Virus record (IMG/VR): IMGVR_UViG_2563366874_000012 | Length of the DNA: 50,800 bases | Source of the DNA: a virus | Taxonomy: Duplodnaviria; Heunggongvirae; Uroviricota; Caudoviricetes | Strand: one strand, 5' to 3' | Shown: positions 13,326 to 19,512 of the stretch, one piece after another | Numbering within the stretch: position 1 is the first letter of the stretch | How the letters are laid out: every line of letters begins with the position of its first letter | The notes under the pieces: model-generated | Told to the model about the DNA's origin: nothing | What the model saw: only the letters and a program-made list of their open reading frames with translations | Databases searched by the model: none | Position numbers and translations under genes: made by a program

Positions 13326-13847
13326 TGAAAATTCCTCAAGTTGGAGAGTTCTGGAACATTAAGGCGAGGTGGCAGTAATGCACCATCTGTAATCTTTTGA
13401 TACTGACGTAATCGGGCCTGATGTGCAACGCCTTGCAAGTATGTAACTCATTGAAAACGATCATTTTTATCTATTGACATCAAATGGCAAACTGTCATTG
13501 TGCGGCTATGGCAAGTGGCAAATGCTTATAAATCATATGGATATAAATAGTACAGAAAGAGTTGTTTTCTCTAGGATATGAGTATACGCCCAATGCTGAT
13601 TGGTTGAATTTTGTTCTTGTTTTAAAGGGTAAGAGTTTAAAGTGTTGGCAGTGATGTATTGGATAGTTAGAATTGCTGTGGGTGCTTGAGGCTATCTGCC
13701 TCGGGCATGAACACCAAAGGTAGATAGAGAAAAGCCCCAGTTAACATTACGCGTCCTGCAAGACGTTTAACATTAATCTGAGGCCATATCTATGCGACAC
13801 ATAGAGATTAGCCTCTTGCGGACCGAAAGGTCAAGGAGAAGCAGGCT

Positions 13848-13973
13848 ATGAAGCAGCAAAAGGCGATGTTAATCGCCCTGATCGTCATCTGTTTAACCGT
13901 CATAGTGACGGCACTGGTAACGAGGAAAGACCTCTGCGAGGTACGAATCCGAACTGGCAGACGGAGGCTCTGA
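13848..13973 (+). CDS. Hok/Gef-family type I toxin homologue with divergent, short C-terminus (possibly inactive)
   Basis: 41-aa ORF MKQQKAMLIALIVICLTVIVTALVTRKDLCEVRIRTGRRRL*; matches recalled HokD/Gef through ...CEVRIRTG then diverges and stops about 10 codons early; 19-codon upstream ORF ends overlapping the ATG. Confidence 0.55.
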   Translation: MKQQKAMLIALIVICLTVIVTALVTRKDLCEVRIRTGRRRL

Positions 13974-14055
13974 TTCGTAGACTACTAATCTGAGTAAAAG
14001 ACCCAGCGGGGAAAGAACCACGCCGGGACTAGTTAATAAGATATTTATAGCGTGG

Positions 14056-14397
14056 CTATTCTTTTTTTGCGGTATAGACTTTTTCGCCTGAGAAGTCTGG
14101 AGCTACCCAAAAGTTAATATTAAACTGAGCATCATCGCTTAGTTCAACACGGTGCCAGTATTGTGGTGGGCTTGTTGCAAAAGCGCCAGCATTAATGACT
14201 ACTTTTATCTCCGGTTCAGTAGCATTCTCATCAGCAAAACCATAATATGTTACAGTACCTTCCATCACGCATAACTGTCCAAAAACACCTGCTGCTGTAT
14301 TATGATGTGTTAATAACGCTGAAGGTACGTTCTCTTTTGTGAAGAACGGAGTTGAGCGTTTGATTACCCAGTCTTTAGGAATTCTCTTGTGTGTCAT
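14056..14397 (-). CDS. YeaR-like DUF1971 (cupin-type) protein
   Basis: 113-aa ORF MTHKRIPKDWVIKRSTPFFTKENVPSALLTHHNTAAGVFGQLCVMEGTVTYYGFADE... aligns by eye with E. coli YeaR (RSTPFW...LSVMHG.V.Y.GYADE...FNIDFFVAPE); GGAGGTGG SD. Confidence 0.6.
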   Translation of the reverse strand: MTHKRIPKDWVIKRSTPFFTKENVPSALLTHHNTAAGVFGQLCVMEGTVTYYGFADENATEPEIKVVINAGAFATSPPQYWHRVELSDDAQFNINFWVAPDFSGEKVYTAKKE

Positions 14398-14765
14398 AAC
14401 CACCTCCCATAAAACATGCATTATAAATGCACCTTTTTGAGGGTTATGTCAAGCTGTTATGAAACACATAATTGATATGTTGATTAGAGGAGAAGATAGA
14501 ATCAATATGGTTGTTTTTCGTATAACTATTTGTTTTACTTTTAGTTTGTGCATTCTGTGTGTTAGGAATAACTTATTAAAGTTTAACTAAAAAATCTCGA
14601 TATAGTCCGCATAGATTACTGTTACTGAATCTTATTGTGTGCATTAGTTGTGTTCTGAAATTTCAATTTAATTACTTATGATATATTTTTAACGATAAAT
14701 GTTTTCCGGGTGAAAGACAGTGGGGGATGAGATAAGCAATATATCATTAATCTTGATTATTTCCA

Positions 14766-14825
14766 GGATGCCTTTACTGTGCATATAAATAAATCATATA
14801 CGCATCAAATAATGTAAAGGCATCC
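14766..14825. repeat. Long inverted repeat (12-bp perfect arms, 36-nt spacer) in AT-rich non-coding island
   Basis: GGATGCCTTTAC (14766-14777) and GTAAAGGCATCC (14814-14825). Confidence 0.6.
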
Positions 14826-15046
14826 TTTTAGATATATCTTATCAAATGTTAATGATTTGAGTGGGAAACATGATTCCAGAAACTAATCATGCGGCTACTT
14901 TATAAAAATAATGCCCATATAAAACAGCCAGCGAAAAGGATTACGGATAAAAAAGGAGCGAGATGTGCATAGTTGTTATTTTCCATGTTTAACCACCTTA
15001 AATAATTGATGATGACGGGATGTGCATCTGTAATGCTTTTGTTGAA

Positions 15047-15081
15047 ATGTTATGATAAAAAAGAACTTTTTCATAACATTA
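15047..15081. repeat. Near-perfect palindrome in AT-rich non-coding island
   Basis: AATGTTATGA-taaaaaagaacttt-TCATAACATT; second GATGTGCAT direct-repeat pair at about 14961 and 15020. Confidence 0.5.
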
Positions 15082-15264
15082 AAATGTAATTTATCTAATC
15101 GTTTTTAATAATAAGTGTTGTATTTCTATCCTTGTATCAGCTATTTGATATGTAGTGTTTGTTCATGTTATGTGGAGCTTTACACCATAGCCAGTTTATT
15201 TATACTTTATTCGTCAGCCTGAACAACTGGCATCTGCTGCACTGCGCCATCGAGAGATTGAGAA

Positions 15265-15864
15265 ATGGCGCATATACAACTGGTCAAACAAACCTCTTCT
15301 GGACTACTTCTCCCGGCGACGCCGGAGAGTTGCGATTTTTTGCATCAAATCAAAATAGGCGAGTGGATACACGCAGACTTTAAGCGTGTGCGTAACTACG
15401 CATTCCACAAGCGTTTTTTCAAACTCCTGCAACTGGGATTCGATTACTGGACTCCGGTCGGTGGGGCGATCACGCCTCGCGAACGAAAGCTGGTTTCAGG
15501 ATTCGTTGATTACCTATGTGAATCAGTAGGCCGGGAACATACGCCAGCTCTGAGCGAAGCCGCAGAGCAATATCTGAATACAGTTGCGACACGCAGAACC
15601 CGGGATACGGCATTGCTAAAGTCGTTTGAGGCTTTCCGCGAGTGGGTAACCATTCAGGCCGGATTTTACACCGAGCATCTTTATCCTGATGGTAGCCATG
15701 GGCGTCGGGCGAAATCCATCGCTTTTGCGAATATGGACGAAACCGAGTTTCAGCAGGTTTATAAATCTGTTCTGAATGTGCTGTGGAACTGGATTCTGTT
15801 CCGTAAATTTTCCTCTCCGGAACAAGTCGAAAATGTGACCGCGCAGCTGCTGGAGTTTGCGTAA
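15265..15864 (+). CDS. Hypothetical nin-region protein (possibly DUF1367-type)
   Basis: 199-aa ORF MAHIQLVKQTSSGLLLPATPESCDFLHQIKIGEWIHADFKRVRNYAFHKRFFKLL...; first gene after the AT-rich island, translationally coupled to the next gene (TAATG). Confidence 0.5.
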   Translation: MAHIQLVKQTSSGLLLPATPESCDFLHQIKIGEWIHADFKRVRNYAFHKRFFKLLQLGFDYWTPVGGAITPRERKLVSGFVDYLCESVGREHTPALSEAAEQYLNTVATRRTRDTALLKSFEAFREWVTIQAGFYTEHLYPDGSHGRRAKSIAFANMDETEFQQVYKSVLNVLWNWILFRKFSSPEQVENVTAQLLEFA

Positions 15865-17733: not shown

Positions 17734-18054
17734 CGTTGTTAGGCTCTGGAAACATCCTCGACTTCTTGTTAGCAAGCCTGAGAGCCTGAATCTTACACTT
17801 AGCACCATCCGAACTCTCGGAGGTGAGGCTTATGAAAATGCACAATGCCCCTCATTCCTGGCCTGACTTACTGGAACTCTTACAAAGTTGGTGGCGTGGA
17901 GATACGCCGCTGGGTGCAGTGGTTATGTCAATTATTATGGCTGGTTTGCGCATTGCCTATTTTGGCGGTGGCGGCGGCTGGAAACGAAAAACGCTTGAGA
18001 TTCTGCTTTGTGGTGCTCTGACGCTGACCTTTGCATCCGCGCTTGGATTTGCCC

Positions 18055-18960
18055 CTATATTTCCAGACATCTGTTATCACTTAACCCATTACAAGCCCGC
18101 TGCCGCAGATATTCCCGTGGCGAGCGATAACCCAGCGCACTATGCGGATGCCATTCGTTATAATGCTCGAACGCCTCTGCAAGGTTCTTTGCTGCCGTTA
18201 ACCCGTCTGGTTTGGGCATGATACTGATGTAGTCACGCTTTATCGTTTTCACGAAGCTCTCTGCTATTCCGTTACTCTCCGGACTCCGCACCGCCGTGTT
18301 CTTCGGTTCAAGTCCCAACATCCGGGCGAACTGGCGTGTTTCATTAGCCCGGTAGCATGAACCATTATCCGTCAGCCACTCCACTGGAGACGACGGAAGA
18401 TCGTTGCCGAAGCGGCGTTCCACCGCTCCCAGCATGACGTCCTGTACTGTTTCACTGTTGAAGCCGCCGGTAGTGACCGCCCAGTGCAGTGCCTCACGAT
18501 CACAGCAGTCCAGCGCGAACGTGACACGCAGTCTCTCTCCGTTATCACAGCAGAACTCGAACCCGTCAGAGCACCATCGCTGATTGCTTTCTTTCACGGC
18601 CACTCTGCCTGTATGTGCCCGTTTCGATGGCGGTACAGCAGGTTTTCGCTCAAGCAACAGCGCATTCTGGCGCATGATCCGGTAAACACGTTTGGCATTG
18701 ATCGCAGGCATACCATCAAGTTCTGCCTGTCTGCGAAGCAGCGCCCATACCCGACGATAACCATACGTTGGCAGCTCTCCGATAACATGGTGTATACGGA
18801 GAAGCACATCCGTATCATCAGTGTGACGACTGCGGCGGCCATCCATCCAGTCATCGGTTCGTCTGAGAATGACGTGCAACTGCGCACGCGACACCCGGAG
18901 ACAACGGCTGACTAAGCTTACTCCCCATCCCCGGGCAATAAGGGCGCGTGCGCTATCCAC
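18055..18960 (-). CDS. insD: IS2 transposase OrfB (InsD)
   Basis: 301-aa [49 protein letters not shown]... with DDE integrase-type core. Confidence 0.9.
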
Positions 18961-19283
18961 TTTTTTGCCCGTCCATATTCAACGGCTTCTTTGAGGAGTT
19001 CATTTTCCATCGTTTTCTTGCCGAGCAGGCGCTGGAGTTCTTTAATCTGCTTCATGGCGGCAGCAAGTTCAGAGGCAGGAACAACCTGTTCTCCGGCGGC
19101 GACAGCAGTAAGACTTCCTTCCTGGTATTGCTTACGCCAGAGAAATAACTGGCTGGCTGCTACACCATGTTGCCGGGCAACGAGGGAGACCGTCATCCCC
19201 GGTTCAAAGCTCTGCTGAACAATTGCGATCTTTTCCTGTGTGGTACGCCGTCTGCGTTTCTCCGGCCCTAAGACATCAATCAT
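18918..19283 (-). CDS. insC: IS2 OrfA (InsC) HTH protein
   Basis: 121-aa [59 protein letters not shown]... Confidence 0.9.
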
Positions 19284-19512
19284 CTGTTCTCCAATGACTA
19301 GTCTAAAAACTAGTATTAAGACTATCACTTATTTAAGTGATATTGGTTGTCTGGAGATTCAGGGGGCCAGTCTAGCGCTTGAGTATGTCGGATGGCCTAA
19401 ATCACTTTCTGTTGCCATTGGTGGTGGGGTGGGGCTGATTGGTGTTGATGCTATTCGTGGTGCGGCAATGAGGGTCATCGGTAACAAGTTCGGTGCCCAT
19501 AAGGAGTAATTA

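Follow-up and report, generated by a model that had tools for sequence, protein, structure and literature searches.

A likely unannotated 28-codon gene and a predicted promoter at a probable junction of two mosaic modules in a Rac-like lambdoid prophage of Escherichia coli

The closest described counterparts of the locus reported here are of four kinds. In phage lambda, terminators (tR2–tR4) precede the nin genes and delayed-early transcription is N-dependent; prophage defence and moron hotspots, such as those of P2/P4 and the lambdoid moron sites with their own promoters and terminators, hold interchangeable cargo at a fixed position between conserved phage genes; small type I toxins (ShoB, IbsA-E, DinQ, TisB, ZorO and Hok) are short membrane peptides; and promoters such as yeaR-yoaG of E. 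coli K-12, ytfE, ygbA and hmp are repressed by NsrR. We compare with these systems the interval 14422-15264 of a virus sequence of 50,800 nucleotides (IMG/VR record IMGVR_UViG_2563366874_000012), which as a whole is called the window and represents a Rac-like lambdoid prophage of E. coli. The interval has the same map position as the lambda terminators, between the replication genes and nin/Q, with terminators ahead of the nin genes, and it shares with the hotspots the interchangeable cargo at a fixed site, each cargo ending in a terminator. On balance, we read the interval as the junction of two mosaic prophage modules, here called Part A and Part B, and not as one element. Most of it is ordinary and consists of an operator/promoter, a spacer, a terminator-like hairpin and a further promoter. 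Noteworthy is a conserved, unannotated 28-codon gene which together with a promoter module forms the fixed border of a cargo hotspot in about one quarter of E. coli genomes, and for which a function can be proposed from the sequence.

The two modules differ both in their distributions over genomes and in their flanks. Among 5,426 complete E. coli genomes, a sensitive search found the whole interval in 463, compared with 1372 for its right-hand 40% (window ~14899-15264), which matched at 73–77% identity. The carriers of Part B thus make up ~25% of complete E. coli genomes, among them ST131, uropathogenic strains of the CFT073 type and Shigella, and no annotated RefSeq feature lies beneath the match in 40 records sampled across the ranking. 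In 127 loci from IMG/VR and from genomes, the upstream neighbour of Part B is one of about ten and the downstream neighbour one of three, with every combination occurring. It follows hokD in CFT073, where a different gene set comes next (a 92-amino-acid protein, DUF968, RusA and Q), and it stands 3' of the defence genes IteA/IteS in strain KMi025. The breakpoints of Part A can be placed by alignment: similarity to the hokD locus of CFT073 ends at ~14027, and similarity to hok-type and IteAS-type loci restarts at ~14905. The left 480 bp are therefore part of a ~880-bp cargo insertion, which bears out an earlier suggestion of horizontally acquired DNA; the single island assumed in the preliminary description resolves instead into two modules that recombine independently. 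Since the hok/sok 3' end and its terminator are retained directly before Part B in most loci, the ancestral order is hok/sok followed by Part B, and the site is a cargo hotspot. In the window, the hok 3' end is replaced by the ~880-bp cassette 14028-14904 with a terminator, the DUF1971 gene and Part A. Part B was not detectable in the hokD-rem-ydfU region of the K-12 Qin prophage, and phage and plasmid collections matched only the same E. coli prophages and contained no intact ancestral gene for Part A.

The leftward 28-codon open reading frame (ORF) in Part B, hereafter the mini-gene, is in our judgement probably a real gene for a single-span membrane peptide, owing to its conservation, its ribosome-binding site and its signature of purifying selection. 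The predicted peptide has a polar N-terminus followed by a hydrophobic segment of ~18 residues that reaches the C-terminus. Cys21 and Trp24 are invariant, and replacements within the segment remain hydrophobic or small (A/V, I/V/A, G/L/C/F/S). The Shine-Dalgarno sequence recurs in relatives as AAGGTGA, AAAGTGA or AAAGCGA, and the left limit of conservation of Part B is essentially the stop codon of the mini-gene. In a first sample of 67 loci the ORF was intact and exactly 28 codons long in every one. Because these loci had been selected by a 15-mer within the ORF itself, a second sample was drawn with a pattern outside it, namely the promoter pattern 200 bp away. All 123 contiguous loci of this sample again contained the 28 intact codons, in 13 peptide variants and 17 nucleotide haplotypes. 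The other two loci showed no such ORF within the 330 bp inspected upstream of the promoter, since IS2 had inserted between the promoter and the place where the ORF is expected. These are the IMG/VR loci L175 and L216, in which the IS2 insertion inside Part B separates the mini-gene from the nin promoter at the equivalent of window position ~15140. The mini-gene is the only ORF of constant length in Part B and is free of insertions and deletions, several of which occur in the flanking non-coding DNA. The pairwise ratio of nonsynonymous to synonymous polymorphism (pN/pS) is 0.08–0.50 in its frame versus about 1.0–1.2 in the other two frames.

Outside these prophages the peptide left no trace in the collections searched. 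None of six peptide variants was present in an exact look-up in a collection of 15 billion proteins, Pfam and NCBIfam gave no family match, and the peptide core gave no result in a full-text literature search. When 185,579 species genomes (one per species) were scanned with a degenerate back-translated pattern, the only matches were Shigella flexneri and 38 apparent chance ones, the latter from unrelated lineages, many of them uncultured. The mini-gene thus appears to be confined to Escherichia and Shigella. A lipoprotein reading was rejected, the lipobox-like motif FAGC not being conserved in the variants, and a match to Lp6.6 (E = 0.03) was judged spurious. The preliminary description had suspected a type I toxin-like peptide in the interval; a gene for a small hydrophobic peptide of that appearance is indeed present, but on the other strand (14986..14900) and absent from the ORFs listed there.

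Most likely, the prophage expresses the 28-amino-acid peptide as a small protein of the inner membrane. A type-I-like toxin role is possible, and the peptide could equally be a benign small membrane protein like those found by ribosome profiling of K-12. As a tentative and rather doubtful extension, Part B might be a complete type I toxin-antitoxin locus, in which a ~110-nt rightward small RNA, starting at the candidate promoter 14980-15007 and ending at the hairpin with its U-tail (15100-15131), would act as an antisense RNA on the 5' leader of the toxin mRNA and block its translation. The size of the peptide and its hydrophobic C-terminal half resemble toxins of the ShoB, Ibs and DinQ type, and the locus adjoins hok/sok in most prophages. 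The candidate antisense promoter is the second-best plus-strand match to the promoter matrix in all non-window variants (7–8 bits) and keeps A2 and T6 of its −10 element invariant; its spacer is only 15 nt long in the clade of the window, and conservation of its −35 element is confounded because this overlaps the start codon of the mini-gene. The pair states of the small hairpin (C-G, U.G and U-A) are compatible with a plus-strand RNA only, but its consensus fold is weak (−5.6 kcal/mol), single-sequence folds are no better than shuffles (z = −1.4 and −1.9), and in the clade of the window, where these signals are weakest, the terminator stem consists of two wobble and two A-U pairs. The promoter of the toxin was not located, hence an overlap of the two transcripts is hypothetical. 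When the region, its surroundings and the CFT073 variant were compared with Rfam, only the upstream sok RNA and sub-threshold chance matches to hairpins came up, and neither variant of the region matched a family. Membership among type I systems is not established: the predicted peptide is hydrophobic and shorter than 60 amino acids, but belongs to no toxin family in Pfam or NCBIfam.

A conserved outer stem also lies in the would-be overlap region. It belongs to a palindrome that was earlier placed at 15047-15081 and is present at 15046-15080, with arms (15046-15059 and 15067-15080) of 14 nt and 93% complementarity. In relatives only the outer 8 bp are conserved; the inner part is clade-specific yet partly self-complementary, and the wobble pairs point both ways, so neither strand is favoured. 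The block 15071-15131 is the best conserved non-coding stretch of Part B in a profile of 65 unique sequences and may act as a weak terminator on the plus strand, as a site of protein binding or as the promoter region of the mini-gene. Four copies of the motif (A)TGTTATG(A) or its complement are present: one near the DUF1971 promoter (14455-14464), one in each palindrome arm (15047-15055 and 15069-15078) and one upstream of the nin promoter (15164-15172). Of these, other clades conserve only the two in the palindrome. Sequestration of the Shine-Dalgarno sequence and long-range helices in the minus-strand leader were considered and rejected, both being clade-specific and not conserved. A direct repeat reported earlier as GATGTGCAT exists as CGAGATGTGCAT at 14959 and CGGGATGTGCAT at 15016, but by our own estimate about one such 9-mer pair is expected by chance in 840 bp, and its second copy has a 2-bp insertion in close relatives and is missing from distant ones.

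The second element of Part B is a predicted sigma-70 promoter that faces a tightly packed operon headed by DUF1367 and continued by DUF1364 (YbcO-like) and DUF1133, which a phage record labels antiterminator Q. Among plus-strand sites it is the best promoter match in the region and has the top matrix score in every variant. Both hexamers are invariant in the 65 unique sequences, with spacer bases that vary at constant length; as this motif had served to select the second sample, the independent evidence for hexamer conservation comes from the first sample and the genome matches. Transcription is predicted to start near 15213 and to enter the nin/Q-like operon. Of the leader, the first ~26 nt are common to all downstream types and also to an O157 Rac-like prophage that has neither Part B nor the promoter. 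The annotations show no N gene in the prophage of the window or in the Part B-bearing prophage of CFT073, and no convincing boxA or boxB was recognized on reading the sequence. A dedicated promoter downstream of terminator-bounded cargo would make sense because no N gene is annotated, and we infer that in such phages promoter 15179-15206 restarts transcription of the nin/Q-like operon. Together with the DUF1971 promoter/operator (14413-14452) at the left end, it gives the interval the outward-facing, predicted divergent promoters that the preliminary description had anticipated. Within the DUF1367 coding sequence, ~50–80 nt from its start, a GC-rich hairpin followed by TTTTTT (15316-15342, plus strand) was called terminator-like by a consensus scan; an attenuator at this site downstream of the conserved promoter is possible, but the fold is not significant and the candidate was not retained. 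If promoter 15179-15206 drives the Q-like operon, it bears on late gene expression in lambdoid phages without N.

From these parts a more ambitious model can be built, in which Part B is a previously unrecognized regulatory cassette of N-less (Rac/Qin-type) lambdoid prophages that gates the Q-like operon downstream of the hotspot, the leftward toxin-like peptide, the possible antisense RNA and the rightward promoter acting as a second switch. We regard this joint claim as unlikely. If it were true, the peptide/RNA pair would affect late-gene timing or prophage maintenance in about one quarter of E. coli strains.

Several observations weigh against a junction that carries a functional gene and promoter. 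Part B is represented by only ~4 clades, all from Escherichia and Shigella, and the selection statistics consequently rest on few events: 12 synonymous versus 19 nonsynonymous changes were counted in the mini-gene, and the excess at third codon positions has p = 0.08. No convincing promoter of the mini-gene was found in the clade of the window, where the best minus-strand candidates are not conserved. A near-consensus constitutive promoter before a Q-like gene should harm the lysogen unless repressed, and no repressor site was identified. Part B and the promoter are missing from an O157 Rac-like prophage whose immunity region is that of the window, so either Part B is dispensable or that prophage is defective. 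For Part A, the hairpin at the cargo edge is unusually long with a T-run of only 4 nt, and it has no conserved plus-strand promoter upstream. At the extreme, the interval apart from the DUF1971 promoter would be functionless spacer, Part B being young and spread by homologous recombination and the ORF a chance survivor. The handful of clades within two genera, the O157 prophage that lives without Part B and the IS2 insertions in two loci fit this picture, as does the fact that mosaic boundaries of lambdoid phages are known recombination joints (see also De Paepe et al. 2014, PMC3945230). However, at 73–77% identity the flanks have gained several insertions and deletions and the ORF none in 123 loci, pN/pS is 0.1–0.5 in frame against ~1 out of frame, the ribosome-binding site of the mini-gene is retained, and the promoter hexamers are invariant though the spacer bases change. 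Given both sides, we consider a functionless Part B quite unlikely and retain the reading of a junction with a mini-gene and a promoter at its right side.

The DNA of 14422-15264 has a GC content of 31%, against 47% for the window, and its longest wholly internal ORF has 43 amino acids, in agreement with the earlier statement that it is AT-rich, free of ORFs of 60 codons or more and non-coding for ordinary genes. Between 14453 and 14904, Part A is an AT-rich spacer that accompanies the ~880-bp cargo and has no coding signal. The 27-amino-acid hydrophobic micro-ORF to which attention had been drawn (14507-14590) does exist, as part of the 43-amino-acid ORF, but behaves as a chance ORF and was rejected as a gene. 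It has no properly spaced Shine-Dalgarno sequence (GAGGAG lies 14 nt upstream), its stop codon mutates in relatives to give 43, 48 or 51 amino acids, and nearly every substitution changes an amino acid. Among 5.8 billion proteins only near-identical copies of varying length were found and no distant relatives, and there was no protein family match.

The sole constrained feature of this spacer is a long hairpin. Its inverted repeat, described earlier with 12-bp arms and a 36-nt spacer, has arms of 13 nt (14765-14777 and 14814-14826), 100% complementary and 36 nt apart, and is beyond chance: the RNA folds at −24.7 kcal/mol (z = −4.87), a value equalled by none of 200 shuffles. All five sequence variants, which are the only distinct sequences available, fold at −20 to −25.6 kcal/mol. 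Pairs of the inner stem change compensatorily, one of them from C-G through U.G to U-A, which is tolerated in plus-strand RNA only. The terminator consensus scan did not call the hairpin, its loop being longer than 8 nt. Because every other cargo type ends in a plus-strand terminator directly before Part B, the hairpin is most likely the right-hand terminator or insulator of the cargo, where the hairpin and T-run at 14765-14831 would stop rightward transcription. The only promoter-like plus-strand site upstream of it, 14655-14682, loses the A of its −10 element in relatives, and a 57-bp deletion in one subfamily of Part A takes out 14708-14764, which lies between this promoter-like site and the hairpin. 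The proposal of the preliminary description, an island silenced by H-NS whose product is the 27-amino-acid micro-ORF or a small RNA of the inverted repeat, is highly improbable, for although the DNA is AT-rich, Part A is acquired cargo and the hairpin is real, with a conserved structure, the micro-ORF is without a ribosome-binding site, varies in length, evolves without constraint and has only near-identical homologues, the upstream promoter-like site and its link to the hairpin are lost as described, and Rfam gave no match. A scan of the region for the H-NS motif gave one near-match, within chance level, and a scan for YdaT/CII-type repeats was likewise at chance level.

The left end, 14398-14452, holds the control region of the leftward DUF1971 gene, which takes up the left ~60 bp of Part A and includes a strong ribosome-binding site. 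We looked for NsrR operators as 11-1-11 inverted repeats of the form AAGATGCATTT-N-AAATGCATCTT, using the consensus of Table 4 in PMC5320621. The match at 14413-14435 is the only one in the 50.8-kb window, and none of 100 shuffles gave any. The first 14 nt of this putative operator are identical to the ygbA site of the same table, and 19–21 of the 23 consensus positions are retained in prophage variants. It lies 16–38 nt upstream of the start codon and overlaps the predicted core promoter, with a perfect TATAAT (14425..14420, minus strand) at its centre. An analogous site with TAAAAT at its centre precedes yeaR in K-12 (PMC5320621). The likeness to yeaR-yoaG and other NsrR-repressed promoters thus comprises the regulated DUF1971/YeaR homologue, the inverted repeat with 20 of 23 consensus matches (PMC5320621) and the −10-like hexamer centred in the operator. 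In contrast to yeaR-yoaG, the gene stands here on a prophage cargo cassette without a yoaG partner, and a conserved TTGACA of uncertain role is found 21 nt from the −10 element, a distance that exceeds a standard sigma-70 spacer. By analogy, this cargo gene is probably repressed by NsrR, the nitric oxide sensor of the host, and would be released under nitrosative or nitrate stress. The putative operator points to a link between a cargo gene of the prophage and the nitric oxide response of the host, which is relevant to uropathogens. The coordinates of all features are collected in Table 1.

Table 1. Features of the interval and its two neighbouring genes, in window coordinates
Feature	Position	Strand	Remarks
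Cargo insertion	14028..14904		Terminator, DUF1971/YeaR-like gene (−) and Part A; between the degenerate hok locus and Part B
DUF1971/YeaR-like gene	14056-14397	−	RefSeq coding sequence; left neighbour of the interval
Shine-Dalgarno sequence of the DUF1971 gene, GGAGGTGG	14400..14407	−	From sequence; RefSeq start codon at 14397
Putative NsrR-type 11-1-11 operator	14413..14435		Minus strand AAGGTGCATTTATAATGCATGTT; 20/23 against ytfE-type consensus AAGATGCATTTAAAATGCATCTT (PMC5320621, Table 4)
Part A	14422-14904		Tail of the ~880-bp cargo insertion that brought the DUF1971/YeaR-like gene
TTGACA, perfect, conserved	14447..14452	−	21 nt upstream of TATAAT; role uncertain
43-amino-acid ORF including the 27-amino-acid micro-ORF 14507-14590	14459..14590	+	Judged a chance ORF
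Long hairpin, 13-bp perfect basal stem and inner stem, then TTTT	14765..14831	+	Terminator-like; right edge of the cargo
Mini-gene (28 codons), MENNNYAHLAPFLSVILFAGCFIWALFL	14986..14900	−	Probable unannotated gene; conserved; hydrophobic peptide
Part B	~14905-15241		Separate ~335-bp module
Candidate weak rightward promoter, TTTCCA / 15–16 nt / xAT(G/A)AT	14980..15007	+	Speculative lead; RNA would be antisense to the 5' leader of the mini-gene
Shine-Dalgarno sequence AAGGTGG	14993..14999	−	6 nt upstream of the ATG of the mini-gene
Palindrome/hairpin	15046..15080		Outer 8-bp stem ATGTTATG / CATAACAT conserved
Best conserved non-coding block in Part B, CATAACATTAAAAT.TAATTT...TTTTAATAATAAG	15071..15131		AT-rich from 15071 to 15117; conservation profile of 65 unique sequences
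5-bp hairpin (15100-15117) and T-rich tail	15100-15131		Within the conserved block; pair states C-G, U.G, U-A
Predicted sigma-70 promoter, TTTACA / 16-nt spacer / TATACT	15179..15206	+	10/12 consensus; faces the DUF1367-DUF1364-DUF1133 operon
DUF1367 5' leader and ribosome-binding site	15215..15264	+	First 26 nt CAGCCTGAACAACTGGCATCTGCTGC
DUF1367 gene	15265-15864	+	Right neighbour of the interval

The feature coordinates of the preliminary description were all confirmed, some repeat arms being one base longer than given there. The surrounding prophage has the gene order intR, xisR, ralR, recET, kilR, sieB, a repressor/cro-like pair, ydaT and ydaV, followed by nin/Q-like, lysis and structural genes. 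For 14000-15400, many chromosomes match at 100% identity, and three deposited E. coli phage records (vB_EcoS-666R9, -673R7 and -613R10) match at 99.9%. Upstream of the cargo lies a hok/sok locus at 13680-13973 (up to ~14027), in which the sok RNA is a strong Rfam match (99 bits). Deletion of 1 nt shifts the frame of the hok ORF and leaves 41 amino acids, against 51 in HokD of CFT073. Because the ORF is truncated and its native 3' end and terminator are replaced by the DUF1971 cargo, the hok toxin of the window is probably inactive. A further type I toxin locus, ralR (RalR/RalA), is located near the integrase end at 1788-1937 according to the RefSeq annotation of an identical prophage, so that the prophage holds at least two recognized type I loci, ralR and hok/sok, besides the candidate mini-gene. 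A 1.3-kb IS2 element (InsC/InsD ORFs, minus strand) at 18046-19374 disrupts the lambda-family holin gene, as judged against an otherwise 99% identical prophage in NZ_CP033884; due to this insertion the prophage copy is probably lysis-defective. The O157 prophage mentioned above (L168/L229; E. coli O157:H7 strain 611, record 1663387-1681502) shares its integrase, recET and immunity genes with the window. There, a methyltransferase and ATPase cargo replaces hok, DUF1971 and Part B, and only a 49-nt DUF1367 leader is kept.

A hotspot for cargo and defence genes, with Part B as its fixed right border, thus lies between the replication and the nin/Q-like genes. Across prophages the cargo includes hok/sok (hokD), IteA/IteS, AbiLi-like, SIR2/ThsA-like and PDC-type genes as well as DUF1971. 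Further cargo was seen directly upstream of Part B in the loci L004, L056, L170, L172/L186 and L194: an AbiLi-like ATPase with a 177-amino-acid partner, a SIR2/ThsA-like gene with adjoining ORFs that by eye are deaminase-like and nucleoside triphosphate pyrophosphatase-like, a restriction-endonuclease-like protein, and a 689-amino-acid ATPase that matches PADLOC candidate families. Literature searches on IteAS, on hotspots and on DUF1367 returned nothing on this locus, and the papers searched contained no description of this hotspot in Rac/Qin-type prophages. As Part B marks the right border of the hotspot in Rac/Qin-type prophages, it could help to find new defence systems. That a very common gene, if the mini-gene is one, is missing from the RefSeq annotation and from a catalogue of 15 billion proteins shows how prophage genes of fewer than 30 codons are overlooked.

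In comparison with known systems, the predicted peptide shares with the small type I toxins its length of fewer than 30 amino acids, its polar N-terminus and a hydrophobic stretch long enough to span a membrane. Like them, the mini-gene was overlooked by gene callers, lies between genes beside another type I locus (hok/sok) and would have a long untranslated leader with a conserved hairpin. It differs in that the peptide has no sequence similarity to those toxins and the antisense RNA is a candidate only. With respect to prophage defence and moron hotspots, the right border is here itself a functional-looking module, composed of a mini-gene and a promoter, and not just the next phage gene. In contrast to the N system of lambda, this locus has neither an annotated N nor a convincing boxA or boxB, and a near-consensus promoter stands directly before the nin/Q-like operon.

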